In this document: one piece after another, positions 5,630 to 40,914 of the stretch
Position numbering within the stretch: position 1 is the stretch's first letter
Layout of the letters: each line of letters begins with the position of its first letter
Source of the DNA: a virus
Lineage: Duplodnaviria; Caudoviricetes
DNA: 46,967 bases
Virus record (IMG/VR): IMGVR_UViG_3300047547_000347
Coordinates: 1 to 46,967 of that record
Strand: one strand, 5' to 3'
The notes under the pieces: generated by a model
The model's database searches: none
What the model was told of the DNA's origin: nothing
Seen by the model: the letters and a program-made list of their open reading frames with translations, nothing else
Translations under genes and position numbers: made by a program

Positions 5630-6231
5630 TTACTCCAGCAGAAGATGTCCTTGACCTGCGAGCCATTGTCGAACGCAAACGGATTGAGCAGGCGTCCGCA
5701 GTAGGCTCACTCAAAACGGCCCGTGAGCTGTTGATGCAGGCAGACGACTACTACACGGAGGTGCAGGAGGCTCACGCACTCATCCAGTTGGTTGCTCAGG
5801 CTGTGCAGCAGGAAGCACATCAGCAAATCGCCGGCGTAGTCAGCCAGTGCCTGGAGTCTGTCTTCGACGACCCATACGAATTCCAGATTGGGTTTGATCG
5901 CAAGAGAGGCCGCACAGAGGCAGAGTTGTTATTTGTGCGGGAAGACATCAAAGTCGACCCGCTCACAGGGTCAGGTGGCGGTGCAGTAGATGTGGCGGCA
6001 TTCGCACTGCGGCTGGCGTGCCTGGTGCTGTCACGGCCTGCGATACGCCCATTACTCGTGCTGGATGAGCCGTGGAAGCATCTATCTACCAGATATCGTC
6101 CTCGACTTCGTGTTCTGGTACAAAAGTTGGCTGAGGATTTTGGAGTGCAGTTTGTTATCGTGACACACTCTGATGAGTTCAAGATAGGGAAGATAGTAGA
6201 TTTGGGTGATGGGGATAATCTACCTAGCTAA
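5626..6231 (+). CDS. SbcC/Rad50 ATPase, C-terminal half
   Basis: Short coiled coil, signature-like SGGG, Walker B LLVLDEP, H-loop VIVTHS. No Walker A. Confidence 0.88.
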   Translation: MITPAEDVLDLRAIVERKRIEQASAVGSLKTARELLMQADDYYTEVQEAHALIQLVAQAVQQEAHQQIAGVVSQCLESVFDDPYEFQIGFDRKRGRTEAELLFVREDIKVDPLTGSGGGAVDVAAFALRLACLVLSRPAIRPLLVLDEPWKHLSTRYRPRLRVLVQKLAEDFGVQFVIVTHSDEFKIGKIVDLGDGDNLPS

Positions 6232-6898
6232 GAATTTGACCAACGGGAAGAAGTACGTAGGTCAAACGATTCACTCTACCCATGAGCGTCGCGGGTATCG
6301 TCGAATTTCGCAGAAGCCACTTTCTGCAAATGATAGATACTTTGAGCGGGCTCTGAAGAAGTACGGTTATGATGGATTTGAGTGGCGGATTTTGTTCGAT
6401 GGTGTGACTCCTGAGGAGATGGACGTTCTTGAGATTGAATGTATGCAGGTTTATGAAACTCTCCATCCTAAGGGATACAATCTCAGAACTGGTGGCCGAG
6501 CAGGAGGTGCCCATGCCCGACCAACACGAATCAAGTTGATCATTGCTCAACTTAGACGTGACCCCGCTACAAGAAAGCACACAGCAGAAGCAAAAGCCAA
6601 GATAGCCGAATCTAATAGACGTCGAGGTGTGTCGCAGGCAACACGTCTGAAGATTTGTAGGTCAGTGGCGAAGATCAAGGAGGAAGATGTTGTCACAATC
6701 AGAGAGCGCTACGCTGCTGGGGAGCTACCGCAGCACATTGCAGTAGATTACGGCTGTAAACGGGACAACATTATTGCCATTGTGAAGGGTACCTCATGGA
6801 AGTATGTGGGCGGTCCCTTAGGGGCTCGGCCAAGAGGTGCTCGATGTGGTGAGCAGAATCCTCGATGGCGGGGCGGTAAGAAGAAACAAGAAGATTGA
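6206..6898 (+). CDS. GIY-YIG homing endonuclease with NUMOD3-like and HTH-like tail
   Basis: GIIY...NGKKYVGQT, ALKKYG..F.W, GYN, KHTAEAKAKI. Confidence 0.88.
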   Translation: MMGIIYLAKNLTNGKKYVGQTIHSTHERRGYRRISQKPLSANDRYFERALKKYGYDGFEWRILFDGVTPEEMDVLEIECMQVYETLHPKGYNLRTGGRAGGAHARPTRIKLIIAQLRRDPATRKHTAEAKAKIAESNRRRGVSQATRLKICRSVAKIKEEDVVTIRERYAAGELPQHIAVDYGCKRDNIIAIVKGTSWKYVGGPLGARPRGARCGEQNPRWRGGKKKQED

Positions 6899-12211: not shown

Positions 12212-12258
12212 ATACTGTGGCTTGAAGTCGCCTGCTGCGACTGTGTAACGTGCCTGCT

Positions 12259-13848
12259 ATGGCACGAAGAACACCTGAAGAACTAGACGCGGAAGAAGCA
12301 CGAGTACTCGCCGCCTATCGAAAGTTGGCGGCGAGAGACTTTATGGTCTTTGTCCGCGGGCTGAAGATTGCCGGGCAGCGGGGACCTGCTGTCTTTGAGA
12401 GTGTCGCTACACCGATGCAGCTCGAGGTCTTTCAAGACATCGCTTCATCGCTGCATGCTCTACGCGATGGTCAGATGCCTGAATGGCCTCGGTGGTGGAT
12501 CGAGCGAACCAAGAAGGCTTCCAAGGACGCAGATCTCGCTGTCATCATTCTGTGGCTCATCGCTTTCGCAGAACGTCCTTTCTACGCCCAGGTAGGGGCC
12601 GGTGACAGAGACCAAGCCGGCATCGTGAAAGAGCGTATCAGTGTGCTGCTGCATCTCAATCCGTGGCTCACGGAATATGTCGAGATGGTGCAATGGCACA
12701 TCAAGAGCAAGCAGCTGATGGTGAGTGGTGCTCCGATGGCCCACCTCGACATCATGGCGTCAGACATTGGCGGTGCACACGGCGGTACTCCCGATCTGCT
12801 AGTCGTCAACGAATTGACCCACATCACGAAGTGGGAGTTCGTGCAGAACTTGATGGACAATGCGGACGGTGTTGCTCAAGGTATGGTGATCGTAGCCACC
12901 AACGCCGGCTACAAAGGTACGCAGGCTGAGGTGTGGCGTAAGAATGCGTTGGCTGGCAAGCGGTGGCGTGTGCACATCTGGGACAAGCCCGCGCCGTGGC
13001 ACAATCAAGCAGCGATTGAAGACGCCAAGACACGTGAGATTAGTAAATCACGATTCAATCGATTGTGGTGGGGTAAGTGGGCGAGCGGGAAAGGAGATGC
13101 ACTTAGCGAAGATGCCATCGATGCAGTGTTCAATCAGAAGGGTTGGAAGGAGCTGGTGTACCCGATTAAGGGGTACCACTATGTGGCGGGTTTGGACATC
13201 GGTGTGCATCACGATCACTGCGGTTTCGTGGTATTGGGAGTCCATCCGCGACGTGGTGTGATTGATGTGGCGTGCCTGCGTGCATGGGAGCCTGGTCCCA
13301 AGGGTGCTGTGCAGCTACCACTGGTAGAAGCTGCTGTGACTGCACTGTGCACTTTGTTTCATGTCAAAGGAATGTTCTACGACCCGCATCAAGCGATTTT
13401 GATGGCACAGCGGATGCAGTCTGTCATCCCGTGCTATCCACTGCCGTTCACGACCACCAACCTCAATAAGATGTGCAACTGTTTTATTCAGGTGGTGGAA
13501 GGTCGGCAGTTGCGATCGTTTGACATCGAGGACGGACGACTGCGACGTGATTTTGGGAAGTTCAACATCGTTGAGAAGTCCTACGGCTATCGACTGGAGG
13601 CGTTACGTGATGCTTCTGGGCACGCCGACGTTGGTACCGCACTGCTGATTGCTCTGCCTGCTGCTGTAGATTTGATGAATGGACTCAGCTTCAGTCCGGA
13701 TGACGAACTGATGGAAGCATACCAGGAGGATTTGACAGAGAAGGAGATTGCAGAGCTGCCTGACGAGCTTCGCGACATCTATGAAATGGGCGAAGCCGAT
13801 GAACTGGAAGCCCTCTATAAGCGGCGTCCAGATTATGTGGGTGCGTGA
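12259..13848 (+). CDS. terL: terminase large subunit
   Basis: Q-motif region, variant Walker A ERTKKASKD, A.DRDQA, variant Walker B LLVVNE, coupling motif ATNAG, RNase H-like GLDIG..HD, YDP, HADVGTA. Confidence 0.85.
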   Translation: MARRTPEELDAEEARVLAAYRKLAARDFMVFVRGLKIAGQRGPAVFESVATPMQLEVFQDIASSLHALRDGQMPEWPRWWIERTKKASKDADLAVIILWLIAFAERPFYAQVGAGDRDQAGIVKERISVLLHLNPWLTEYVEMVQWHIKSKQLMVSGAPMAHLDIMASDIGGAHGGTPDLLVVNELTHITKWEFVQNLMDNADGVAQGMVIVATNAGYKGTQAEVWRKNALAGKRWRVHIWDKPAPWHNQAAIEDAKTREISKSRFNRLWWGKWASGKGDALSEDAIDAVFNQKGWKELVYPIKGYHYVAGLDIGVHHDHCGFVVLGVHPRRGVIDVACLRAWEPGPKGAVQLPLVEAAVTALCTLFHVKGMFYDPHQAILMAQRMQSVIPCYPLPFTTTNLNKMCNCFIQVVEGRQLRSFDIEDGRLRRDFGKFNIVEKSYGYRLEALRDASGHADVGTALLIALPAAVDLMNGLSFSPDDELMEAYQEDLTEKEIAELPDELRDIYEMGEADELEALYKRRPDYVGA

Positions 13849-13928
13849 TGGCTTGTTGATTCCACATCTTCGCCTACCGTAAAGGACAACGCGGTGCCGC
13901 CTTCGAAGAAAGGCGTCTGGCCTTCTTT

Positions 13929-14270
13929 ATGAACGAATTCGGGAGGCACTCATTGACCCCATTTCAGGCGTTGGCTTCTTGCTTTGCAATCAGCTCATTT
14001 GCAGGGCTGGCAGCACTCCTTCGATCAAATACACCTCTCACTCTTCGTGCGATTTTATCGGCGACAACGTACAGCGGAGCTATGGGCCTGATTATCGGGC
14101 TGCTGTGGTACACCGAGTACGGTGAGAAGAATCCATACCTCATGTTGGGTGTCGCAGGACTCGCCGGCATTGGCGGTGTGACAGTGATTGATCTGGCTGT
14201 CATTGCGTTCAAGAAGAGCGGGATTACATTCAAAATCGTAAAAGCGGATGAAGAAGAGGCAAATCCCTAA
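13929..14270 (+). CDS. putative holin (LydA-like, about 3 TM segments)
   Basis: 113 aa, three Gly-rich hydrophobic segments, charged C-terminus. Confidence 0.65.
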   Translation: MNEFGRHSLTPFQALASCFAISSFAGLAALLRSNTPLTLRAILSATTYSGAMGLIIGLLWYTEYGEKNPYLMLGVAGLAGIGGVTVIDLAVIAFKKSGITFKIVKADEEEANP

Positions 14271-14911
14271 TGGTACAAGAACGCCACGCCCGAAATTGGT
14301 TGTCTGCTGTGTTGTTGGTGATTTGTGCTGTCTTGATTGGTGTGCTGGGGACTGAAGCCAAGAAGCAGAAAGATCGAGCACAGATTGCGGATGGGCGGCG
14401 AGCGAGAGCTGATGCTGCTGCGGTTGATGCCAGCTATCGACGTGACTTGGCTCTACGGCGGGCTCATCTCATTATTGAGTCCAGCGATGTTGCTATCATC
14501 GTTTGCGATAAGGAGGGCATCATCATCGCTTGCAATGCAGCAGCAGAAGTGCTGTTGGGTTGGGATCATAAGGAGGTGGTAGGCCGGCACTCATCGTTGT
14601 TCGTGCCGGAAGCTTATCGCGAGCGGCATATCAAGGGTCTGGAAAGAGCCTGTAAAGCCCTGGAAGAGTATGAGGGTGATTGGCGGTTGACCAGTGATAG
14701 AAGAGTACTGACAGCCCTCAAGAAGGATGGTACGGAGGCGGAGTTTGTGGCGTCAGTGCGAGCCATTAAGTATGGAGAGAATATAGATTTCATTCTGACG
14801 CTGACACCGAATGCACCTCCAAAAGAGGGGCCATTGATGTTGCGGAGCCCTCAACCGTTGTCAACAATTGAGCATGGCAACCTGCTGGAGTATTCTGCTC
14901 CTAGAAGGTAG
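14270..14911 (+). CDS. membrane-anchored stand-alone PAS domain protein (FixL-like)
   Basis: N-terminal TM helix, helical linker, PAS: AIIVCDKEGIIIACNAAAEVLLGW...VVGR..LFVPEAYRERH...LTALKKDGT. No output domain. Confidence 0.88.
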   Translation: MVQERHARNWLSAVLLVICAVLIGVLGTEAKKQKDRAQIADGRRARADAAAVDASYRRDLALRRAHLIIESSDVAIIVCDKEGIIIACNAAAEVLLGWDHKEVVGRHSSLFVPEAYRERHIKGLERACKALEEYEGDWRLTSDRRVLTALKKDGTEAEFVASVRAIKYGENIDFILTLTPNAPPKEGPLMLRSPQPLSTIEHGNLLEYSAPRR

Positions 14912-14951
14912 TGGCGGGCTTTCACAATCCTGTTTGAGAGGAAGAGGAACG

Positions 14952-15179
14952 ATGACACGTGACGACATTGCTGCGGAACTGAATGGTGTTCGAGGTGCAG
15001 GCTTTGCCGCATCGGCGGATTATGAAGCGGCTGTTGATCAGGTAGCCGTGGCACACGCCGCCGGCGTCAGTGGGATCGTTGAGATCCTGACTCTGGTCAA
15101 GCTGCTGCTGCCGTTCTTCCAGGACAACCTGCCGGCGTTGATCGATCTGCTGAGCAAGCTGTTTGCGCCGAAGACGTAG
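14952..15179 (+). CDS. small amphipathic protein
   Basis: GAGG RBS; hydrophobic C-terminal helices. Confidence 0.65.
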   Translation: MTRDDIAAELNGVRGAGFAASADYEAAVDQVAVAHAAGVSGIVEILTLVKLLLPFFQDNLPALIDLLSKLFAPKT

Positions 15180-15203
15180 ACAACGGAAGCGAGATGTCCC
15201 GGT

Positions 15204-15252
15204 GCCGGTGTGGTGAGCTCCCCAAAGTTTCCACCACACCGGCCTCTTTCTT
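15204..15252 (+). terminator. Rho-independent terminator-like hairpin
   Basis: GCCGGTGTGGTG / CACCACACCGGC 12-bp stem followed by CTCTTTCTT. Confidence 0.65.
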
Positions 15253-15280
15253 GCACTGAACAAACGTGGCGAAACCTCCA

Positions 15281-16453
15281 ATGAATATCTTTCTGTTGGC
15301 ACTGCTGTGGGGTGGCCCGTTATTCGGGCAAGTTGACGATACGGCTGATTGGCGACCAGTCCCGACGATTGCAGTCGCCGCTGATGAGGTGTCGGCTGAC
15401 GCACCAAAAGCCAGCATCACTATGTTGGACGGTGAACCCGTCCCGACGACGGTGAAGCCGAACACGGTGTTGTTCTTTTCGTCGGCCGATGCAGTGTCCG
15501 CGGGCAAGAAGGGATCCATCCTTTGGATCGTATCTCCGGACACGATTGCGAAAAAGAGCCGTCGCCTGGAATTGGCGGGGGCTTCTGTGTTGGTCGTGGA
15601 GGTGGGACCCGATCAGTACATCTTGACTGTGCACCAAGTCGCTATCAGCAAGGGCGGCGAAGGTGATGTACAGACGATCACGATACCGGTACGCACGGAC
15701 GGCCCACCGCCTGACCCCGATGTGGATCCCACGCCGATACCGATCAATGAATCGTTGACAGACTTCCTCAAGCGGGAAGTCTCTGCCGTTGTGAAAGATG
15801 CAGCAGCGAAAGAAGCGTACGAAGGCATCGCCAATGCGTACCAGAGCATCGCAGATACACCGCTGTCGAGTGTTGAGGCGATTGAAGGGTCGACGAAAGT
15901 CGTAGTGGATGCCGCAGCGAAGTCGGTGAAAACTTCTTGGGCTGGCATTCAGACGAAGCTTGATCAACGGCTAGCCTCACTCAAGACGACAGGTAAGCTG
16001 GCGACGGTTACGGATTATGTGGCGACGTGGAAAGAGATTGCCGGCGGTATTCGTGCCGGGCTTGGGCCGCAGCCGCCACCTGACCCGGATGTCGATCCAG
16101 AGCCTGACGTTGATCCTGACGTCAACCCGTTACCTACTCCTGGTCTCCATGTGTTGTTGATCTACGAGCAGGACGATATCACCAACGGCACAATGCCGCC
16201 CGCACAGGCAGGTATTCTTACATCGGTACCGTTTCGTGAAACACTGCAACGCCTAGGCGCCAAGTGGAAAGCGTACGACGACGATACGACGCTGCCGTCT
16301 GACACTGAGAAGGTGTGGCGGGATGCTTTTGCTCTGCCCAGGACGAGCGTGCCGTGGGTGTTTATCAGCAACGGTACCAAAGGCTATCGCGGCCCTTGGC
16401 CGGCGAATGCTGAGGAGGCCACCAGGCTTGTCGAAAAGTACAAACTCAATTGA
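15281..16453 (+). CDS. exported multidomain protein with Pro/Asp linkers
   Basis: Signal-peptide-like N-terminus; PPPDPDVDP linkers separate three domains. Confidence 0.75.
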   Translation: MNIFLLALLWGGPLFGQVDDTADWRPVPTIAVAADEVSADAPKASITMLDGEPVPTTVKPNTVLFFSSADAVSAGKKGSILWIVSPDTIAKKSRRLELAGASVLVVEVGPDQYILTVHQVAISKGGEGDVQTITIPVRTDGPPPDPDVDPTPIPINESLTDFLKREVSAVVKDAAAKEAYEGIANAYQSIADTPLSSVEAIEGSTKVVVDAAAKSVKTSWAGIQTKLDQRLASLKTTGKLATVTDYVATWKEIAGGIRAGLGPQPPPDPDVDPEPDVDPDVNPLPTPGLHVLLIYEQDDITNGTMPPAQAGILTSVPFRETLQRLGAKWKAYDDDTTLPSDTEKVWRDAFALPRTSVPWVFISNGTKGYRGPWPANAEEATRLVEKYKLN

Positions 16454-16725
16454 GATTATCTGTCGAGAGCAAAGAAGCGATCCAAAGACTCCAAGCCGTC
16501 CAGCCGAAACTCGGGGATGGTGATGAGTCGAAGTGTCTACCCGGTTGGATAGACACCTTTGTGCGGAAATTCAATTATGGTGAAGGGTACGAGCTAACTC
16601 ACAACGCAGTGAGTAACCTGTGCCATACGCTTATCGCTGCTAAGATCCGGACTGATCGGTTGGTTCGGGAACGTGATGCTGCACTTGCCAAAATCGAGGA
16701 ACTGACCAATGGCGTTTCAAAGTAA
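16450..16725 (+). CDS. hypothetical protein
   Basis: TTGA overlap; fills the gap. Confidence 0.55.
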   Translation: MRLSVESKEAIQRLQAVQPKLGDGDESKCLPGWIDTFVRKFNYGEGYELTHNAVSNLCHTLIAAKIRTDRLVRERDAALAKIEELTNGVSK

Positions 16726-17563
16726 TATCGGCGGCTGTCCGATCATCGACGACGACAATGCACATGAGTTCTTCGACCCGAAGGTGGACGGCGAACGGGT
16801 GTGCAAGGGACGGATGCCGCGTGACTTTACTCGCGAGCCTCTTGGGTCTCTCGGTTTCGCTGCCCCCTTCAAAGACAAGGTGAAGTTGATCCCACGTAGT
16901 GATTGGGATTTGCTCATCAAGGAGAAGCAGGAACGCCGTGAACGCATCAAGGACATGTTTGACTTTCACAAGATGAGAGTCAAAAACCAGGGCCAGACGA
17001 ATTACTGCTGGATTAACGCCCCGGTGCATGCGATTGAGTTGGCTCGCACCAAAGCCAACCAAGAGTATGTGGAGCTGTCGCCGGCGTCGGCAGGAGCGAT
17101 GATCAAGCGGGGAGCCAATGTCGGAGGCTGGGGGACAGAAGGTGTCCGCTGGCTGGCTGAGCACGGTCCCGTCCCGTCATCGATGTGGGGCAATAATCAG
17201 TTGTCCGGTTGGCGGGAGTTGGATGCCAAGTACGGCGCCGAGCGAGCGAAGTATCGCGTTGAAGACTGGATTGAACTCACGCCCAGGAACTTCGACCAAG
17301 TCGCATCGCTGTTGCTGTACGGCATCCCGGTGTGTGTCGGTCTCAATTGGTGGGGACACGAAGTCACGCTGTGGGATTTGGTGAAGTTGGATGGCACTGG
17401 ACGGTACGGTGCCTACTTCGGCAATAGTTGGGGACCTTCTTGGGGCGATAACGGTCAGGGGGTGTTGACGGAATCCAAGGCCACACAGGATGACGGTGTG
17501 TCGCCGATCGTTGTTGTGGGCGGTGACGTGAAGAAGTTGTTGACGCCGTCCCTGTCGCTGTAA
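16709..17563 (+). CDS. papain-family (C1) cysteine peptidase
   Basis: VKNQGQTNYCW (Gln oxyanion, catalytic Cys), WWGHEV (His), NSWGPSWGDNG (Asn). Confidence 0.92.
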   Translation: MAFQSNIGGCPIIDDDNAHEFFDPKVDGERVCKGRMPRDFTREPLGSLGFAAPFKDKVKLIPRSDWDLLIKEKQERRERIKDMFDFHKMRVKNQGQTNYCWINAPVHAIELARTKANQEYVELSPASAGAMIKRGANVGGWGTEGVRWLAEHGPVPSSMWGNNQLSGWRELDAKYGAERAKYRVEDWIELTPRNFDQVASLLLYGIPVCVGLNWWGHEVTLWDLVKLDGTGRYGAYFGNSWGPSWGDNGQGVLTESKATQDDGVSPIVVVGGDVKKLLTPSLSL

Positions 17564-17575
17564 AAGAGGTTTGTC

Positions 17576-18523
17576 ATGCTGCGATGTGTCTGTACTTTCC
17601 TGTTGCTCACTCAGATTGCCGGTGCTCAGGACTTCCAATGGAAGTTCGAAGATGAGCAGTCGCCGGCATTCAAGTGGGCACTGACGGATGACGGGGACCA
17701 CCGCGAGAAGACAGTGGTCGATCCGCTTGACTGTGTCTTCAAATTCCAGATCGGTCGGTTTCTGGGCTCATGTGTGCACATCGGCGAAGGGTTTTTCTTG
17801 ACTTGCGATCATGTGATTGCGAGAGCACCTGATCAGCCCGTGAGAATCGATGATGTTGCAGCGGACGTCAAGTCAATCAACCGGTCGAAGAATGGTGACC
17901 TGGCGATCGTGCACTGCCCAAGTATGGCCCACCTACAGTTCGCACCGTACAGCGTCAGGCCGGTGGTTGCTGGTACCCCGTTAGTGTTTGCGGGGCGTTA
18001 TACCAAGCGGTCGGCGGGGTTGGCAAACGGTATGCGGTACACCCGTGGTGTGGTGCAGGTGGATCTCGCTGCCGGAGAACCGTGCACCCGTGAAGGTGAT
18101 AGCGGTGGTGGGGCCTTCGATACTGATGGTAATTGTGTTGGCGTGTTGTTCAGCTATCTGGAGGGTCGGACAGGTATTCTGATTAGTCCACTCGCCATTT
18201 CGAAAGATGTGCTTCTTGATAAGGAGGCGGCTGTAGCAGTCACCGCTGAGGAGAAGCCTACAGCAGACCATGGGTATCTGTTCACTGCGACATGGTGTGG
18301 ACCGTGTCAGACTGTGCATGCGAAAATCCTGCCTGGTGTGAAGCAGAAGTTGAAGGATAAAGGTTGGAACCTCGAAACTCAGTTTCAAGAGATTGATACC
18401 GACCAGCATCCTGATCTGGTGACAAAATTCAACATCAAGAAGATCCCGTGCTGGGTATTTGTGGACGCTGATGGAGAAGAAGTGTCCAGATTTGTCGGAG
18501 TCAGCGAACCGGCATTGCCATGA
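17576..18523 (+). CDS. exported trypsin-like serine protease fused to thioredoxin domain
   Basis: Signal peptide; LTCDHV, DLAIV, GDSGGG triad; C-terminal ATWCGPC...IP. Confidence 0.9.
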   Translation: MLRCVCTFLLLTQIAGAQDFQWKFEDEQSPAFKWALTDDGDHREKTVVDPLDCVFKFQIGRFLGSCVHIGEGFFLTCDHVIARAPDQPVRIDDVAADVKSINRSKNGDLAIVHCPSMAHLQFAPYSVRPVVAGTPLVFAGRYTKRSAGLANGMRYTRGVVQVDLAAGEPCTREGDSGGGAFDTDGNCVGVLFSYLEGRTGILISPLAISKDVLLDKEAAVAVTAEEKPTADHGYLFTATWCGPCQTVHAKILPGVKQKLKDKGWNLETQFQEIDTDQHPDLVTKFNIKKIPCWVFVDADGEEVSRFVGVSEPALP

Positions 18524-27131: not shown

Positions 27132-28940
27132 ATGCCCTCCGCCACGATGAAGGCTTTGGAGCGTTCATACGCTCTTTCTAACTCTACGCAGCTCCGTTAT
27201 ATGGAGATGCAGAAGGCCGGATCGACGGGGATGATCGATCTGGATGCCGGCAGTGGTGGACTGGCTCAGCTCAGCCAGTTTCAAGATCAAGCAGCCAACC
27301 GCCAGCGGTACAGTCTGTTTCGTGGCCACATCTACTCCGCAGTCAACGCGATTGCGATGGAGGCTGCCGGTCAGCCGGTGCATGTGGGTAAGCGAAAGAA
27401 GAAGGAGAAAGAGAAGAAGCCCAAGGACAAGAAGGATTACTCGCATCGGTCGAAGATGACCATTGCACTGCGAGCCAAAGCTGCCCGCAGTGAGATGGAA
27501 GTGATTGATGATCACGATTTGCTAGACAACCTAGAGTATCCGAACCCCATCCAGACCAAATGGCAGTTCGTGTATTCCTTCGTCGCTAATTTGAGCCTGA
27601 CTGGTTGGGCTTTTATCGTTGGTGGCAAGAAGAACGAAGAAAAGGGCAAAGGTGGTGGGTACGAGTGGTACTCGGTGCCGACCACTTGGGTACACCCGGA
27701 TCATTCGCAAGGTGCGTTTTCACGCTACAAAATCTACAACCCGAAGGATGCAGCCGGCGCCCAGAAGGAGAAGTGGATCCTGGGTAACCAGGTGAAGTTT
27801 GCCTACCTCCCTAATCCGTCCGATCCGATGGCCGGCTTGGCTCCTGCTGCTGCACAAGCAGCAGCAATCAGGATTGATGAGTACATTCAGTCGTCGCAGA
27901 CGGTGTTCTTTGAGAACGGTGTATTTCCGTCTGTGATTGTGACGGTGGGACAGAACCCGCATCCTGACCTGGGTACAGCAGGCGGCAGTCGGCCGCGTCT
28001 CAGTGCACCGCAGCGGCGTCAGGTGTATGCAGCAATCAAGAAGGTTAGTAGCGGCATTGCCAACTATGGTAATCCCGCGATCGTGGACGGCTTGATCGAG
28101 AAGATCGAACGGCTGTCCGCCACGCAAAATGAGATGGGTTGGGAGAAGAGCGAGAAGGCCGTTCGCTCCCGCATCCTATCCGCCTTTGGTGTGCACCCGT
28201 TCATCCTCGGTGAGGAGATGGCTGGATCGTATGCCCAGGCATACATCGTCCAAGATCGTTTCTTCAAAAAGGTCAACACGTTCCTTGATCTGCTCAGTGT
28301 GGTGATGAGCGGGTTTATCGGGGAAGGCGAACTGATCACTGAGTCTGAAGATTTGATGGTGTGGTGGGAGGCGTGCAAGGCTACTGATCCCAGCATGGAG
28401 AAGGCGACGTGGGAGTCAGCACGCAAGAATGAAGACGTTAGCCAGAACGAGTTTCGGGCGTGGATGGGCTTGCCTCCTGATGACGATGATGAGGAGGCGA
28501 TTATCAACGCATCGGTCGTGCCGCATGTTGCAAAGATTGCAGCAGATGCGACGGCTGGTACGATTACACCCGAGCAGGCACTCGCACTGCTAACCGGACT
28601 CGGGTTGCCGGAGGATGTGGCCAAAGAGATCGCAGGCGAGGGACCCCCAGAACCACCGCCTGGCGCCGACCCGGCGTTGATGGGTGCTGTACCAGGGCAG
28701 CCCGGACAACCACCACAGGCACCAGGCAAGCCGGGTGCAGTACCAGGTAAACCCGGTGCAGCTGAACCAGTTGCGGCGGCCAAACCAGCCCAGCCGAAGA
28801 AGCCGCCCAAATCTGCTACGCCTGCAGAAGAGTTGGCCAAGGCAACTGAGTCTTTGGATATGGCCATTTTGCAGCTCGAGGAAGAACCGCACCAGGCCGT
28901 TAGGCGGTTACTGGAGCGAGCCTCTCTGGTCGATGCATGA
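27132..28940 (+). CDS. portal protein (HK97 family)
   Basis: IYSAVNAIA, PNPIQT, LSLTGWAF, FFENGVFPS, ILSAFGVHP, NEFRAWMGLPP; Pro-rich C-terminal extension. Confidence 0.92.
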   Translation: MPSATMKALERSYALSNSTQLRYMEMQKAGSTGMIDLDAGSGGLAQLSQFQDQAANRQRYSLFRGHIYSAVNAIAMEAAGQPVHVGKRKKKEKEKKPKDKKDYSHRSKMTIALRAKAARSEMEVIDDHDLLDNLEYPNPIQTKWQFVYSFVANLSLTGWAFIVGGKKNEEKGKGGGYEWYSVPTTWVHPDHSQGAFSRYKIYNPKDAAGAQKEKWILGNQVKFAYLPNPSDPMAGLAPAAAQAAAIRIDEYIQSSQTVFFENGVFPSVIVTVGQNPHPDLGTAGGSRPRLSAPQRRQVYAAIKKVSSGIANYGNPAIVDGLIEKIERLSATQNEMGWEKSEKAVRSRILSAFGVHPFILGEEMAGSYAQAYIVQDRFFKKVNTFLDLLSVVMSGFIGEGELITESEDLMVWWEACKATDPSMEKATWESARKNEDVSQNEFRAWMGLPPDDDDEEAIINASVVPHVAKIAADATAGTITPEQALALLTGLGLPEDVAKEIAGEGPPEPPPGADPALMGAVPGQPGQPPQAPGKPGAVPGKPGAAEPVAAAKPAQPKKPPKSATPAEELAKATESLDMAILQLEEEPHQAVRRLLERASLVDA

Positions 28941-31900
28941 CAACTGCTATCTTGGATAAGATCAGGCAGGTTAAAGCCGCAACTGCTGCGGTGCAGTTGA
29001 AAATGCGGTTGCAGCAGCGGGACTACCATCGAGCCGCCTTTGAGCAGCTCCACCTGAAGAAGGTTGAGAAGGTTGAGGCCGATTTGCAAGAATCGCTAGA
29101 GCCTCTCTTCGCCGACCAGATCAAGTCGGTTGAGACGAAACTACGGAAGCTCGCTGCCTCCAAAAAGAAAGCCTTCTGTCCGACAGGACCGGGAGGTGGT
29201 GTCGACCCGACTTGTGGGTCAGGAGGAGGCGGAGCAGCGAAGGTGGGTGCTGGAGAAATTCCAAAGCCGCCTAAAGTGCCTGCTGTTTTGCAGCCGAAGT
29301 ACGACGAGATTTACGCAGCAGCAAAGAAAGGCGATCGTGCTGCGGTAGAAGCTGTTAAGACAAATCCGAACGCACAGTCTCCGTATCCAAAGAAGTTGCA
29401 CCAGTACAAGACTGAGGTACTGGCTGCGATGGACACAAGCAAAGGCGACGGGAAGAAGCCCTCCGCTCCAAAAAAGGCGGACTTTACCATCGAAGAGCTG
29501 GTTGATGCCCCGGGGAGGGACGTTCAACAGGCTATGGCTAAGTTGGGGTTGAATCATGCAACTGTCGAGCAAATTGCTCGTGCGGCGGGGGCAATTTCTG
29601 GAGCTCACGTTCAGATTGCCGCCGGTGTGCTGAACGAGTGGATTCGAGTGGATGTCCAGCACGAAGATTACAAGGCAGTTCGGGTATTTGACAAAGAGGG
29701 ACTCAATAATGCGAATTTCAGCGTCACCAAACCTGGGAGTGGGCTTGGTACCCGCATCTTTTCTCAACAGGTAGCTGAAGCGTCATCGCTTGGGATCAAG
29801 AAAATCCACACCTATGCGGCTGGCGAGCCGGACATAGCCAAATTCAACGGATACTACACCTGGCCTCGATTAGGGTACGATGGCAGGATACCTCGAAGTA
29901 ATATGCAGAATGCTGGTAGGAAATTACTCAAGCAGCAATTCCCCGACGCCAAGAAAATCAGCGATTTGATGCGGACTAAGGCCGGTCGGGATTTTTGGAA
30001 GAATCACGGTGCGGGAGCTTCGTTGCAGTTTGATCTCTCGCCCAATTCACAATCAAGGCAGGTGCTTGATGCCTACGTCGCAGCCAAATTCGGATCAGGA
30101 GCAGCAGGTGGAAAATCCGCCGGAGATGACTTCAGAAGACGACGAGCTGCTGGATCAGATCTGGGACAACCTCCCGACGGCGAATACGTCTGGGGAGGAG
30201 AACCCGGCACCCTAGCCAAGAAGGTATTCGACCCATCGGAGTGGGACGAAGAACTTATTGACCGAGCACTCCCGCCGTTAGCTAAGGCGATGGCGGTTGA
30301 GATGCTGCGGGCACTGAAAGAGTTGGGTGTTGACCCACGGCGACGTAAGCCGAGAAAAGACGTCAAAGCCTCCACCGCCACTGAATGGATGGAGGACTGG
30401 AACATCGACCTAGAGGACGTTGTCTTTGATACTCCGTCTGGTGGTATCTCCATGGGGTTTGTGACGGAGTACCCGACATGGATGAAGACCGAGATCAAGA
30501 ATCGGCTGCAAGAAACCTTCGAGCAGGACTATTGGGCGAAGGTCAACGAGACGACCTTTGGTGACATCGAAGGTTACCTGAAGAAGGGATTGAAAGACGG
30601 CTGGTCCATCCAGAAGATGGCCGATGAGATCATGCCGCAGCTGATGAATCAAGGTAACTACGCTGAGTGGCGAGCCAAGACGATTGCTCGCACTGAGAGT
30701 GGTAATGCGTTGAATGGGGCTCGTGTTGCAGCAGCGGATAAGTTGATTGACGAGATCCCCGAACTGCCGATGAAGAAGGTGTGGTTGTCCGTGCTGGGTA
30801 CCACCACCAGACGGGAGCATGCTGACCTGGACGGAGTGCCCGCCAACAAAGACGGCTTATGGAAACTAGGTGGTGTCTGGGTACGTTGGCCGGGTGATAT
30901 TAATCTTCCAGTGGCGCAGAGGGCGAATTGTCAGTGCACTATCGTGGTTTCTTGGGGAGTTACCGATGAGTCGGCTGAAGAACTGATTGCTGAGTACGGT
31001 CAACGGCTGGCCGAAGATGCACCGGATGAGGAAAAAGCGTTCTGTCCTACCGGTCCCGGAGGTGGTGTAGATCCGACTTGTGGAAGCGGCGGCGGAAGTG
31101 CCGGACCGAAAGCCGGCCATGATTCACGTGGGGTGCCTATGCCGCCCAAGGTGCCGGGCAGTATCCAGCACAAGTTCGATTCCATCTACAACGCATCACT
31201 GTCGGGCAAGAAGTCCGATGTCGAGGCAGTCAAAACCAATCCAGACGCACAGTCACCGTACCCGAAGAAGTTGCACCAGTACAAACTGGATGTACTGAAG
31301 TCGATGGATACGGCAGTTCCCACTGCAACGCCTGCGGCGAAGCCGGTTGAGCAGCCGAAACCGGCTGCTGTTGAGGCTCCCGTTCCCAAGCCGATCCCGA
31401 TGCCGAAGCCGGCAGTGATGCCGAGCACGGCTACCTCAGACGGCTTCACTATCGCGGAGAAGAAGCAGCGGTTTGATGAGCACCTAGCCAAGGCGCAAGA
31501 ACTGCTTCCAGAGATTCATAAACTCGATAAAATCAGTCGAGACAAGAGTCTCACATCTGCAAAGAGGATTCAAGCTCGCCTTGATCACAAGCGAGTGAAC
31601 GCTGCTCGACAGGCTCTCCTTTATAAGGCACAGACAGAGAGGATGTCTGCAGAGGCGGCAGATCCGAAAGGGTATCGGCAGCTTCGAGAGGAATTTGAAG
31701 CGAAGCACGATGCATACACCAAAGCCGATCAACAGTTTGCGGAAAAGTTGGTGGCAGCGGGCGTGACCGCAAAAGAGGACTACCATTCGTTCAGTGCCTT
31801 GGATATAGGTTCGAAAGGATACAGTTTTGATAATGATGATCCGTATCCCCGTCAGGCAAAGAATTATCCGGGACTGACACGTGAACAGTACACCGAAGCT

Positions 31901-32839
31901 CAGGAACTATCAGCACGATACAGCGAGCTGCGAGCACAGGAAGACTTCAGCAAACCGTATTATGGAGAACCGGCAACGCCTCGGCAGTTGAATCAAACTG
32001 GCTTGAATGCACCTTCGCCCATTCTTCCTGGTAAGGTTGGTCAAGGTGGGGCGGACGACGCTACACGTGATTTTATGGGTCAGGCTGAAATACTGATCCA
32101 AGTCAAACCGAATGCGTTCGTGAAGATTGTATCTACCGAACGCATCAAGAACAAATTCGAGGGTGGTGCGACAGGTAGTGTCGGTGCTGGTAATTCCGAC
32201 TACAACAACTCTCGGAAAACGGCAGAAGCTCGGACCTTTGATATCGATCCCGAGGCCCCAGCAGCCAGTCGCCCAGTCTACGGGTACCTGCAACATCCGG
32301 ATCGGGCGGTATCAAGTGCTGCATCAATGGGCATGACTTACGGCACGGTGCAGGTGGTGTTGAAGCCGTCCGCAAAAGAACGTACGTCGTACACCGTCGG
32401 TGATTCGCTGGATGATTATTCGAAGACATTCCAGCAAGCGGGGTCTGTATCAAATCCAATCAACAACAATTTCAAACCGGAAGTCAAGTACGAGTACCTT
32501 GCAGAAAAACCGGAAAGAATAGTCAAGGCTGGACCTACGAAACAGGATTGGTTCGTCACCACTGAGGTGGGCGGACAGACGATGTCTTCAGATTCAGGTT
32601 ATGTGTTGAAGCTCTCGCCGCAGTACATCGAAGCACAAATTCATGGAGGGATTCAGTTGTCTGACATTGCAGCCTTCCGAGTTCCGCGTGGACTTGAGAT
32701 TCCCGACAAGACACGCACCAAACTTCAGAAAGCTGGCGTATCATTGATTGAAGTGCCGCCTCGGCACCCGTCTAGTTTCTACGGGATGGAAGATTGGGAT
32801 TCGGCGTTGGTGGATTCTATCAACCCGAAGAAAGACTGA
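28937..32839 (+). CDS. MuF/SPP1 gp7-like head morphogenesis protein with inserted GNAT-like domain and C-terminal DUF3626-like domain
   Basis: MuF core about 30500-30960 (IARTES, KKVW, TRREH, RWPGD, NCQC). GNAT-like GSGLGTRIF...NGYYTWPRLGY. C-terminal RPVYG, YG, TVGDS, YIEAQIHG. Confidence 0.85.
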   Translation: MTTAILDKIRQVKAATAAVQLKMRLQQRDYHRAAFEQLHLKKVEKVEADLQESLEPLFADQIKSVETKLRKLAASKKKAFCPTGPGGGVDPTCGSGGGGAAKVGAGEIPKPPKVPAVLQPKYDEIYAAAKKGDRAAVEAVKTNPNAQSPYPKKLHQYKTEVLAAMDTSKGDGKKPSAPKKADFTIEELVDAPGRDVQQAMAKLGLNHATVEQIARAAGAISGAHVQIAAGVLNEWIRVDVQHEDYKAVRVFDKEGLNNANFSVTKPGSGLGTRIFSQQVAEASSLGIKKIHTYAAGEPDIAKFNGYYTWPRLGYDGRIPRSNMQNAGRKLLKQQFPDAKKISDLMRTKAGRDFWKNHGAGASLQFDLSPNSQSRQVLDAYVAAKFGSGAAGGKSAGDDFRRRRAAGSDLGQPPDGEYVWGGEPGTLAKKVFDPSEWDEELIDRALPPLAKAMAVEMLRALKELGVDPRRRKPRKDVKASTATEWMEDWNIDLEDVVFDTPSGGISMGFVTEYPTWMKTEIKNRLQETFEQDYWAKVNETTFGDIEGYLKKGLKDGWSIQKMADEIMPQLMNQGNYAEWRAKTIARTESGNALNGARVAAADKLIDEIPELPMKKVWLSVLGTTTRREHADLDGVPANKDGLWKLGGVWVRWPGDINLPVAQRANCQCTIVVSWGVTDESAEELIAEYGQRLAEDAPDEEKAFCPTGPGGGVDPTCGSGGGSAGPKAGHDSRGVPMPPKVPGSIQHKFDSIYNASLSGKKSDVEAVKTNPDAQSPYPKKLHQYKLDVLKSMDTAVPTATPAAKPVEQPKPAAVEAPVPKPIPMPKPAVMPSTATSDGFTIAEKKQRFDEHLAKAQELLPEIHKLDKISRDKSLTSAKRIQARLDHKRVNAARQALLYKAQTERMSAEAADPKGYRQLREEFEAKHDAYTKADQQFAEKLVAAGVTAKEDYHSFSALDIGSKGYSFDNDDPYPRQAKNYPGLTREQYTEAQELSARYSELRAQEDFSKPYYGEPATPRQLNQTGLNAPSPILPGKVGQGGADDATRDFMGQAEILIQVKPNAFVKIVSTERIKNKFEGGATGSVGAGNSDYNNSRKTAEARTFDIDPEAPAASRPVYGYLQHPDRAVSSAASMGMTYGTVQVVLKPSAKERTSYTVGDSLDDYSKTFQQAGSVSNPINNNFKPEVKYEYLAEKPERIVKAGPTKQDWFVTTEVGGQTMSSDSGYVLKLSPQYIEAQIHGGIQLSDIAAFRVPRGLEIPDKTRTKLQKAGVSLIEVPPRHPSSFYGMEDWDSALVDSINPKKD
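29168..29233 (+). repeat. KAFCPTGPGGGVDPTCGSGGG motif, copy 1
   Basis: Peptide repeated at 31034 and 43948 with synonymous codon differences. Confidence 0.95.
30108..30215 (+). CDS. overprinted 35-aa acidic mini-protein nested in the MuF gene (alternative frame)
   Basis: AGGAG (30097-30101) 6 nt before GTG 30108; MENPPEMTSEDDELLDQIWDNLPTANTSGEENPAP*. Confidence 0.5.
   Translation: MENPPEMTSEDDELLDQIWDNLPTANTSGEENPAP
31034..31099 (+). repeat. KAFCPTGPGGGVDPTCGSGGG motif, copy 2
   Basis: Identical peptide to copy 1. Confidence 0.95.
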
Positions 32840-35439
32840 TGATGAGAACGCTGAGAACTCAGTACCTGCCAGAATCGCAGTGGTTGTACCTCAACAACGC
32901 TCTCGTCGTTGGCTTCGACTTTGACTCTGAACAGCCGGTGTTGCAGTACACACCAGGAGAAGAAGTCACGCTGCGAATGGCTCAGCGGGTGGCTTGGGAT
33001 CAAGGAGAAGAGGCGTTTGACAAGGATGAATTGGAACTGATTGAAAAGGCGATGAGGCCGTTTCGGCGTGATGACGAAGATACTGATGGACCAGAGAAGC
33101 CCAAAGGAGGCGCCGGCTCCGGAAACTTTTCCCACCTCGGCCGTGCCGGAAAAGTAGGTGGATCGGGACAGGGTGGAGGTCCCGTCAAAGATCAAGAAGG
33201 CAAGTTCATCCCAGGAGCTGTCGGTAAGACACTCGGTGTCGATACCAGCAGTTGGGATAAATCGTCGTCCAATGCACAGTGGGCGATGAAGAAGCTGTAC
33301 AAGATGGAACAAATGGCGGCAGCCGGCCATTGGAGCCTACTTGCAGCTCATGCTTGGAAGACCAACGCACAGTACCCAGATAAGTACAAGAAGGCGGTGC
33401 TTAAAGCCCAGGAGGGTATTCAAGCACTCAAGACCAAGGCAGTCAATGCACCACCGGCAGGCACCACGCCTGTGGCTAATCCGCCGGTACCCGCACCGGT
33501 GCCGAAGTGGAACAAGGTCGGTGGTCAGCTTGGTTCGAATCCAGGCGGTACCTACGAATTTGAAGGGAAGAAGTTCTACGTCAAGTTCCCAGCCGACCCA
33601 GATGCAGCTCGGACAGAAGTGCTGGCGTGCAAGCTGTACGAAGCAGCCGGTGCAGATGTCGTCAAGGCACACCTAGTTGAGATTGACGGGAAGACCGCAG
33701 TCGCAACGGAGTGGCTTGATACCAAGGCCATTGACTATGGTAATGCGGGCCAGAAGCAGAAAGCACAGGAGAACTTCGCAGCACACGCCTGGCTGAACAA
33801 CTGGGATGCGGTTGGTGCAGTAGGCGACACCAACAATATGCGGATGACGGCTGATGGTAAGGCCGTGATGGTGGATGCGGGTGGGTCTCTGGATCGCAAG
33901 GCGACCGGCGGCAAGAAGGTGTTTACGGATGATCCTGCGGCGTGGGACGACATGCGGAATCCGAACATCAATCCGTCTGCTGCAAAGGTGTTCGGATCGA
34001 TGACACCCGATCAGTTGACACTGTCAGCGAATAAGATTTTGTCTGTCAGTACTCAACAAGTTGACGATCTGGTGGACAAGTACGGGCCCGGAACTGTTGC
34101 TCAGAAAGCTGCACTAAAAGCGACACTCTACAATCGGCAGGAGGCGATTCTCAAGAAGACGGAAATCGTTATCCAGAAACCTGCACGAGTGTCGACTCAG
34201 CAGACAGAGGATCCCACTGAATACGTTCTGACAGGGACGACGCCGGGCGGGAGCATGATCTACACGGCTGCTGCTCCTGCTTCTAAAGTCCCGATGGCCG
34301 TACCACCGCCGCCCAAGGTCGCGAGCTACGCACAGCAGCACGGCGACAAGATGAATGCGATGTACGAAGCCGCACAGTCCGGCGACATCGCAAAGGTGAA
34401 TGCAATCAAGACGAACCCGAATGCCAGCAGCGCCTGGCCGAGCAAAGTCCACGCCTACAAGATGCAGGTATTGGCGGCGATGCAGTCAGGCGGGAAGGCA
34501 GATGGCAATCACGTCGTGCAGAAAACAACGGCTACCGGGCAAAAGGTAACGATCAAGTCCGAGTCCTTCCCAACCAAACCAGTTTTTGTTTCTAAGAATG
34601 CTGCACAGAAAGCAGCTAACGAAGCAGCAGTTGAGCAGGCGTGGAAGCACGCCGAGGCCGGTGACTTAGCATCGCTGCAAGGGATGGACTTGCCGGCGTC
34701 GCCGAAATTGAAGCAGTGGCATTCAGAGTTGGCGTCTGAGCTATCGGTTCAGCTCAATCCTCCACCGCCGACCAAGTCGCTTTCAGAAGGGTACATCGAG
34801 GCGACGTCTCATATTTCTGGCAAGTCCGGGAAAGAAGGTCTTCAAAAGATCGGGTACTGGACGGTGTTGGGTGATGTGGGCGGTGTGCCTAGCGACTTCC
34901 CTGATGGCGGTTCGAGAACCTTCCCATCCAAGGCTTGGGATGATGGTAATTCGAGATACGAAGCTCTGCCCGGACCGCAGAAGACAGAGCTTCTGAGTTA
35001 TACCGGCGGCGGTTACAGCTCGATCAATTCATCGCTGCGGACGGAAAGTAGTCCATCGGCTAGTGCGATGAATGCAGCAAAAGGCGCAATGAATGCTGCT
35101 CTTACTCTGCCGACCGGATACACGTTGACACGAGGCCATACCGGTTCTGAGAAAGAGTTCAAGAACCTGAAACCCGGGATGGTAGTCGCGGACAAAGGAG
35201 TGTTGAGTACCAAAGCGAAGGGAAAGTGGAGCGGTAACATCCAGTGGAAAATCAAATTAGGGACAGGTGTGAAAGGTGTGCCCGCCCGTCAGTTTTCACA
35301 TCATGGGCATGAGAACGAAGTCATCCTGCCGCCCAATTCGCGTATGTTGGTTACGAAAGTGATAGCGAAGAAGGGCGGTTACTTTGATGTGGAGGCTATT
35401 GCACTGCCCACTCAAGATTCACAATGCTGCCCACCGTAG
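32839..35439 (+). CDS. multidomain effector: HipA/PI3K-like kinase domain plus VIP2-type ADP-ribosyltransferase
   Basis: GQLGSNPGG, YVK, TEVLA, NWD...NN, MVDAGG kinase motifs. YTGGGY..IN..LR, LTRG, VLST, ENEVILP (R-S-E ART). Confidence 0.82.
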   Translation: MMRTLRTQYLPESQWLYLNNALVVGFDFDSEQPVLQYTPGEEVTLRMAQRVAWDQGEEAFDKDELELIEKAMRPFRRDDEDTDGPEKPKGGAGSGNFSHLGRAGKVGGSGQGGGPVKDQEGKFIPGAVGKTLGVDTSSWDKSSSNAQWAMKKLYKMEQMAAAGHWSLLAAHAWKTNAQYPDKYKKAVLKAQEGIQALKTKAVNAPPAGTTPVANPPVPAPVPKWNKVGGQLGSNPGGTYEFEGKKFYVKFPADPDAARTEVLACKLYEAAGADVVKAHLVEIDGKTAVATEWLDTKAIDYGNAGQKQKAQENFAAHAWLNNWDAVGAVGDTNNMRMTADGKAVMVDAGGSLDRKATGGKKVFTDDPAAWDDMRNPNINPSAAKVFGSMTPDQLTLSANKILSVSTQQVDDLVDKYGPGTVAQKAALKATLYNRQEAILKKTEIVIQKPARVSTQQTEDPTEYVLTGTTPGGSMIYTAAAPASKVPMAVPPPPKVASYAQQHGDKMNAMYEAAQSGDIAKVNAIKTNPNASSAWPSKVHAYKMQVLAAMQSGGKADGNHVVQKTTATGQKVTIKSESFPTKPVFVSKNAAQKAANEAAVEQAWKHAEAGDLASLQGMDLPASPKLKQWHSELASELSVQLNPPPPTKSLSEGYIEATSHISGKSGKEGLQKIGYWTVLGDVGGVPSDFPDGGSRTFPSKAWDDGNSRYEALPGPQKTELLSYTGGGYSSINSSLRTESSPSASAMNAAKGAMNAALTLPTGYTLTRGHTGSEKEFKNLKPGMVVADKGVLSTKAKGKWSGNIQWKIKLGTGVKGVPARQFSHHGHENEVILPPNSRMLVTKVIAKKGGYFDVEAIALPTQDSQCCPP

Positions 35440-40329: not shown

Positions 40330-40914
40330 ATGTCGATCATCTACTGTGCGGTCAATCGGGTAAACGGAAAGCGATACATCGGGAAAACCCGTAATGCGCT
40401 TTCTGCAAGACGTCGAACGCACGAGTTGTGTTCGTTAAAGGAAGCGGGTGTACGTTTTTGCTTCCATCGGGCTTTAAGAAAGTACGGACATGCGGCTTTT
40501 GATTGGGAAGTGCTCTTTGAGGGAGTTGTTAGTCGACAGGTCTTGAGTAAACTTGAAATAGACTTTATTCAAGATCTGCAGACGCAGGCGCCGGATGGAT
40601 ACAACATGACGCCGGGCGGCGAAGGCGGTAATCATGGAATTGAGCACACCCGAAAAATGCAGGCGAAAGCTGTTCTAGCTAATACCGGCAGTAAGAGGTC
40701 ACATACAATTCGGCAGAAATGTCGAGAGGCTCAGATAAAAAGATTTCAATCCCAAGAACAAAGACAAGCGGTCGGGGCTTCCCGTAAAGGTAGGACTTGG
40801 GAAGAGATCTACGGAACCGAAAGGGCCCAGCAAAAGCGGCGGGAATATAGCTTGCGAATGCTGGGAAACGGGAGAGGGAACGGTAGAGGAGTAGCTGTCA
40901 ACGGTGGTCGTTGA
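40330..40914 (+). CDS. GIY-YIG homing endonuclease
   Basis: IIY...NGKRYIGKT, ALRKYG..F.W, GYNMTPGG; paralog of 6206..6898. Confidence 0.88.
   Translation: MSIIYCAVNRVNGKRYIGKTRNALSARRRTHELCSLKEAGVRFCFHRALRKYGHAAFDWEVLFEGVVSRQVLSKLEIDFIQDLQTQAPDGYNMTPGGEGGNHGIEHTRKMQAKAVLANTGSKRSHTIRQKCREAQIKRFQSQEQRQAVGASRKGRTWEEIYGTERAQQKRREYSLRMLGNGRGNGRGVAVNGGR

Follow-up and report, generated by a model that had tools for sequence, protein, structure and literature searches.

Holin timing follows membrane energisation and, in T4, superinfection as well. The locus described here raises the question of whether a holin could also answer to a dedicated sensor protein: a holin-like gene overlaps the gene for a membrane-anchored PAS protein, and we asked what such a protein might do beside a holin. 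The DNA analysed, hereafter the window, covers the whole of a linear virus record (46,967 bases; Caudoviricetes; IMGVR_UViG_3300047547_000347) with a completeness estimate of 50%. A preliminary description made from its sequence had proposed either a haem-, O2- or redox-responsive regulator of lysis timing or a decoy of host sensor kinases.

The gene pair and its setting

Profile scans of the window identified terminase, portal, head protease and capsid genes. The gene pair lies immediately downstream of the terminase large subunit (Table 1), and we therefore assign it to the late gene block. The TAATG overlap reported in the preliminary description is present as claimed, with a single A belonging to both reading frames, and its motif positions were also correct: LFVPEAYRERH occupies residues 110–120 of the PAS protein and RRVLTALKKDGT begins at residue 144. 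A search of positions 13600–15400 found no promoter or terminator consensus on the + strand, and no structured RNA was detected 5′ of the window holin gene (z = 0.68). Among 22 upstream regions, z fell below −2 in L003 (−3.2) and L023 (−2.1) alone, and there was no common fold.

Table 1. Positions of the gene pair, its upstream neighbour and the haem-type residues in the window
Feature	Position	Strand	Remarks
Terminase large subunit	12250..13848	+	phrog_9, E = 3.9e-17; immediately 5′ of the holin-PAS pair
Holin-family ORF	13929..14270	+	113 aa, stop TAA; LydA-type (holin superfamily III) family protein by remote homology; three predicted TM helices, predicted N-out/C-in
TAATG stop/start overlap	14268..14272	+	Translational coupling inferred
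TM-PAS ORF	14270..14911	+	213 aa, start at the A common to both ORFs; TM (~10–28), coiled coil (to ~71), FixL/DosP-type PAS (~66–180), disordered tail
His120	14627..14629	+	Aligns with FixL His200 (B. japonicum), the proximal haem ligand
Arg126, Arg145	14645..14704	+	Counted from the aligned His; correspond to the propionate-contacting Arg206 and the O2-contacting Arg220 of FixL

The upstream product appears to be a putative LydA-type holin, an assignment made by remote homology. It matches PHROG holin families 6384 (E = 7e-6) and 175 (E = 2e-3), and its structure model contains helices at residues 11–32, 39–64 and 69–96, so the proposed identity as a three-TM holin-like protein holds at the family level. 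We assembled a holin family of 31 members from 9 database proteins and 21 loci. All 31 members match phrog_6384 and 19 match phrog_785, and P1 LydA and P1 LydC each match both of these PHROGs; on this basis we place the family, tentatively, with the LydA-type holins. The Pfam LydA family (PF16083) was matched at E ≤ 0.1 by 13 of the 31 (best 4.3e-9), and the window holin itself falls below the cut-off (15.2 versus 28.4 bits, E = 0.023). Direct profile comparisons were not significant with either P1 LydA (hhalign E = 0.37) or P1 LydC. When the window holin was compared with viral models using Foldseek, the best matches were mostly holins, all at E ≥ 0.027, with a LydA-labelled holin at the top (E = 0.027). 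The predicted orientation follows from the loop charges (mean K+R of 2.9 in loop 1, 2.0 in the C-tail and 0.7 in loop 2), and the predicted outer loop of the window holin is short, at about 5–9 residues. No holin-PAS fusion was found among longer proteins in 8000 scored candidates, which is weak evidence.

The region 3′ of the pair (14952–18523) opens with an ORF for a 75-aa product whose C-terminal half is hydrophobic or amphipathic. A long hairpin follows this gene at about 15200–15250 (z = −2.26; 3 of 200 shuffles were equally stable), which we do not call a terminator. The same region encodes a 390-aa signal-peptide-like protein carrying PDPDVDP repeats, a papain-like C1 peptidase (weak match, E = 0.0017) and a fusion of a trypsin-like protease with thioredoxin. 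Given that no endolysin was recognised in the window record at its 50% completeness, this protease block could act in envelope breakdown; it was not found after the pair in the other scanned loci. Elsewhere in the window, positions 28937–35439 encode a Mu-F-like head protein of 1300 aa that contains DUF3626 and, after it, a protein of 881 aa bearing an Alt-like ADP-ribosyltransferase domain. A related pair of GIY-YIG-type homing endonucleases is encoded at 6206–6898 and 40330–40914, one of them between the head protease and capsid genes. A Planctomycetota host, our first guess, was not borne out: in 401 genomes of that phylum the holin profile matched nothing beyond the seed MAG and, weakly, a single frame of 427 aa, and the C1 peptidase matched none of 201 genomes, compared with one of 201 in a second phylum. 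The three MAG loci bear three different phylum labels. Two of the related loci, L022 and L024, lie on phage-like contigs from MAG bins that carry the labels Nanopelagicales and Aquaspirillum, which need not name the hosts.

Recurrence of the pair in related loci

Conservation of the gene pair had been set beforehand as a test of the preliminary description. Holin-seeded scans yielded loci L002–L024 together with L026 and L031; the four further rows of the scan that gave the last two were repeats of L002–L005. We dropped L012, whose proteins equal those of L002, and L021, which ends inside the holin gene, leaving 23 distinct loci. A TM-PAS gene lies directly 3′ of the holin gene in 19 of the 23; 17 of these exceed a Pfam cut-off, and those of L003 and L004 fall just below it. 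Because the arrangement recurs in so many distinct related loci, the pairing is not a matter of chance. Contig ends cut 4 of the 19 PAS genes, and all 15 complete ones lack an output domain. In all but one of the 19 PAS loci (18 of 19) the junction between the two genes falls in the range −23 to +16 nt, with start codons chosen by us. When holins were clustered at 60% identity, a PAS partner was present in 14 of 16 clusters, spread over the tree and over GC contents from 0.39 to 0.62; L026 and L031, which have no PAS partner, stand outside this count.

The partner gene varies in form. L006 and L014 each encode two PAS domains, L020 carries two TM-PAS genes in tandem, and the PAS_3 subtype occurs in L006, L009 and L014. 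In the remaining 4 of the 23 loci the slot holds another membrane protein, consisting of a TM plus an unclassified domain in L002 and of 2–3 TM segments in L005, L026 and L031; the PAS profile matched none of these four partners. On the branch formed by L005, L026 and L031, L005/L030 has a YspA-SLOG gene upstream, and visual inspection showed look-alikes in L026 and L031.

Purifying selection acts on both the holin and the PAS gene. The dN/dS of the PAS gene is 0.09–0.22 in all nine pairs compared, and that of the holin gene 0.05–0.13 in the seven of nine that were computable. Holin and PAS distances correlate weakly over 14 pairs (rho 0.32), and 141 of 5000 permutations gave a value as high; kinship alone could explain this correlation.

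PAS-seeded locus scans yielded no loci, and the converse question, whether such a PAS gene always follows a holin gene, was tested indirectly only. An independent phmmer search with the PAS protein returned, among its best 150 matches and its own fragment aside, eight short single-PAS relatives of 188–235 aa; the others were long multi-domain proteins, mostly kinases or cyclases. Three of the eight agree with holin matches in source and in the length of the longest contig (62453, 2157 and 4767), a hint that they perhaps lie on the same contigs as holin relatives. No relatives turned up when viral contigs were scanned with single proteins. In tblastn searches of 50,697 GenBank phages, neither of the two window proteins nor the L024 PAS protein was matched, and the L006 and L014 proteins gave weak kinase-type or unannotated matches only.

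We also scanned the neighbourhoods of 14 pairs for lysis genes, covering 138 of 197 listed or added ORFs on the + strand only. The sole adjacent endolysin is an amidase immediately 5′ of the pair in L004/L029, one of the 14 neighbourhoods. PG-binding or M10 peptidase genes lie about 4–5 kb downstream in L008 and L024, and no wall hydrolase was found in 11 of the 14. Amidase_2 and PG_binding_1 were matched in none of five partial virus records, including that of the window. Glycosyltransferase genes flank several of the related loci. A gene for a 2H phosphoesterase (2H-SAK) directly follows the pair in 6 of the 14 neighbourhoods (L006, L008, L011, L013, L022 and L024), and in some loci it is fused to, or precedes, an InPase domain.

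A haem-type PAS domain behind a membrane helix

The downstream protein has a single hydrophobic stretch at about residues 10–28 (mean hydropathy 2.5) and a PAS domain above the Pfam cut-off (PF00989, E = 9.8e-13, residues 66–166; TIGR00229, E = 6.7e-15). Its AlphaFold model (pLDDT 88) shows one helix from residue 3 to 71, a PAS fold at 75–180 and a low-confidence disordered tail. Coiled coil and PAS are arranged much as in the dimer modules of kinases, and the phage clade has traits of its own in a longer F-alpha helix and an RAIKY motif. Pfam and NCBIfam gave the PAS domain alone in the 213 residues, in agreement with the earlier claim that the protein lacks a kinase or other output domain. 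NF041777, which models the full-length FixL sensor kinase, scored 31.5 bits against a cut-off of 850. No kinase or receiver domain was found in the window contig, and no HisKA domain in three related virus records.

The assignment of the domain as FixL-like was likewise upheld. As a single sequence its best match is FixL (E = 2e-7). When the PAS family profile was compared with the PDB, the 14 best matches were DosP, FixL and FG214 (E ≤ 4e-13), with the next at 2e-9, and the top 10 Foldseek matches were all haem-PAS domains. Thus, the nearest solved relatives by both sequence and structure (PDB 1d06, 1dp6, 8js5, 1s66 and 10jx) are haem-PAS proteins, with which the window protein shares the PAS fold and the equivalents of His200, Arg206 and Arg220 (FixL numbering as given in the available portion of PMC10765370). 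It differs from these proteins in having an N-terminal TM anchor and no kinase, EAL or HTH output, in about five extra residues after F-alpha, and in being phage-encoded and tied to a holin. It also has no equivalent of FixL His214, a secondary propionate contact; the window protein has Arg139 at this position, and 10 of 18 rows have Leu.

The F-alpha His is kept in 23 of 27 aligned rows and replaced in four. Across the 11 closest sequences, with identities down to about 35%, it never changes, whereas the columns beside it do. The arginines are less widely kept: of the 27 rows, 10 have R or K at the Arg126 position and 8 have R at the Arg145 position. The window protein combines the F-alpha His, distal Arg and propionate Arg of FixL/DosP-type haem-PAS domains, which form cluster 3 of PMC10468136. 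The available text of that source names the F-alpha His as the primary determinant of haem binding and puts its retention at about 60% of the cluster. Because the best matches are of the FixL, DosP and FG214 type and the His is so widely kept, we predict that this PAS clade probably binds haem. Stabilisation of O2 is plausible for the window's subgroup only. Natural His-less variants occur in L003, L011 and the first copy in L020. Some relatives have lost the haem ligand yet stay selected, since the His-less L018 gene and the first PAS gene of L020 remain under purifying selection. At L020 (8350–9458) the tandem TM-PAS genes follow one holin gene, the first without the haem His and the second with it, and form a natural control pair.

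We then considered on which side of the membrane the PAS domain lies. The basic residues after the TM helix had been taken to place it in the cytoplasm, which fits the window copy (K+R of 2 before the helix and 4 after). The argument does not generalise to the family, because in 21 of 29 TM-PAS proteins the N-side carries the more positive net charge, with the two sides equal in 4 and the N-side lower in 4 (15, 7 and 7 by K+R alone). In most relatives, the flanking charge would point to an exported, periplasmic PAS. According to the accessible part of PMC10468136, true PAS domains are mostly cytoplasmic and reported extracytoplasmic ones have been reclassified as Cache. On balance we lean slightly towards a cytoplasmic domain. 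The N-tails are basic, with Arg8 present in at least 90% of the A5 set of TM-PAS relatives. In lambda S107, a basic N-tail keeps its helix from crossing the energised membrane. By analogy one may speculate that the basic N-tail of the TM-PAS protein is a latch of the same kind, and basic residues on both flanks might equally fit a helix that crosses on depolarisation only.

Candidate roles of the TM-PAS protein

The TM-PAS gene is best read, by analogy with phage P1, as occupying the slot of the antiholin gene lydB, which would make its product a dedicated partner of the holin. Our leading reading, which we hold tentatively, is that the protein is the putative holin's dedicated regulator and at the same time a haem-type sensor, acting through His120 so that the time of lysis would vary with the oxygen or redox state of the cell. 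Coupled translation would supply matched amounts of the two proteins late in infection. The TM helix might then pack with the holin helices and restrain hole formation in the manner of an antiholin. As happens in FixL and FG214, a change in haem state could alter the PAS dimer or the coiled coil, and thereby the grip on the holin. A predicted complex of holin residues 1–108, TM-PAS residues 1–183 and haem scored 0.02 and 0.00 against a mark of 0.32, in a run in which controls were not folded, and counts neither for nor against this reading. This reading is weakened by the replacement of the His in four rows and the retention of the distal Arg in just eight, by the missing His214 equivalent, by the scarcity of adjoining endolysins and the four loci with another membrane protein, by the N-side charge of most relatives and the weak correlation of holin and PAS distances, and by the sub-threshold PF16083 score and non-significant P1 comparisons of the holin. 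A broader form, in which the haem-PAS domain gates a LydA-type holin so that a widespread group of aquatic and sediment phages times bursting by gas or redox state without a change in transcription, is doubtful. If true, a cofactor-bearing sensor acting directly on a holin would make the lysis clock responsive to chemistry as well, linking viral killing to the oxygen gradients of sediments and of stratified water.

The TM-PAS protein could instead be blind to ligand, a structural antiholin or obligate second holin subunit whose PAS domain serves merely as a dimerising scaffold. We rate this as somewhat unlikely. It would account for the His-less genes that remain selected and for the PAS_3 and non-PAS proteins found in the same slot, and the available text of PMC13056207 offers a precedent in LysF1a/LysF1b, a two-protein holin with a single-TM partner. 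It sits poorly with an invariant His among variable neighbouring columns in the closest sequences, and with L020, where the adjacent His-less and His-bearing copies suggest two jobs. An unlikely alternative is a periplasmic sensor, either N-in/C-out or cleaved and exported like T4 RI, that senses an envelope or superinfection signal and brings about lysis inhibition. The basic N-tails and the N-side charge of most relatives argue for it, as does T4, where periplasmic domains mediate the action of both the holin T and the antiholin RI (PMC11413866, portion available); the predominantly cytoplasmic location of PAS domains (PMC10468136, in the accessible part), the more basic C-side of the window protein and the short outer loop of the holin argue against it, and inspection by eye revealed no conserved cleavage motif in the TM-PAS proteins.

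A role outside lysis seems quite unlikely. The PAS protein might interfere with host signalling as a decoy, by forming heterodimers with FixL-like kinases, or export of phage proteases or glycan enzymes might be the task of the holin-family protein; these readings draw on the rarity of adjacent endolysins, the kinase-like coiled coil and PAS, the protease genes after the pair in the window and the flanking glycosyltransferases. Against them, P1 lydA-lydB too lies apart from the endolysin gene of its phage, as the accessible text of PMC9025707 describes, and the clade-specific PAS traits do not resemble mimicry of host kinases. The decoy suggested in the preliminary description gained no positive evidence; a decoy needs no fixed coupling to a holin, and the coupling is left unexplained. 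That the gene is the degenerating remnant of a sensor kinase once captured by the phage, beside the holin by accident, is highly improbable. Most PAS relatives among the best 150 matches are indeed long kinases or cyclases, but this reading is already largely refuted by the retention of the pair in 19 of 23 loci, the low dN/dS of the PAS gene and the uniform length of 188–235 aa among the closest single-domain relatives.

Holin regulators, haem-PAS sensors and a phage PAS sensor are already known, and here a probable haem sensor, as judged from sequence, seems to fill the regulator slot. VqmA-Phage is soluble, carries a DNA-binding domain and works as a transcription factor in the choice between lysis and lysogeny. 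This protein, from vibriophage VP882, resembles the TM-PAS protein as a phage-encoded PAS sensor bearing on lysis (PMC8284805, as far as its available text describes), and differs in not being a membrane partner of a holin. The gene order of P1, a LydA-type holin gene with an overlapping downstream regulator gene, is the same as here (AF234172). P1 LydB differs in that it contains no PAS domain and has no detectable homology to the PAS family (hhalign E = 0.23; no A7 profile match); the available part of PMC9025707 gives it no predicted TM and an unknown mechanism. Separate proteins also retime the holin in T4 (holin T with RI and RIII; PMC11413866) and phiKZ (gp142/gp143; PMC12894885), and in T4 the retiming answers a signal. 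These are class III single-TM holins, and the accessible portions of the two sources do not describe the regulators as PAS or cofactor-binding proteins. In mycobacteriophage, LysF1a and LysF1b pair a multi-TM holin-like protein with a partner carrying one N-terminal TM, both being needed for correct lysis; this system acts on a Gram-positive envelope, and the available text of PMC13056207 does not mention a sensor domain. Our literature search, which left subscription journals mostly outside its coverage, found no published PAS partner of a holin, and the pairing of a holin with a haem-type PAS protein is apparently undescribed so far.

A look-alike arrangement exists in a cultured phage. Foldseek comparison of the PAS domain with viral models returned several short PAS proteins of uncultured phages, a 240-aa protein of Cellulophaga phage phi19:1 and, more weakly, a PAS fold in phi18:3. 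In phi19:1 (L033:4399–5425), gp107 is weakly LydA-like (E = 0.049) and its gene overlaps that of the 240-aa gp108, to which we assigned the Foldseek match by size and which has a hydrophobic anchor in addition to the PAS fold. Since gp108 fails to match the PAS profile, this pair would be a parallel case. Both proteins are annotated as hypothetical, and their genes sit about 1.5 kb before the lysozyme gene.
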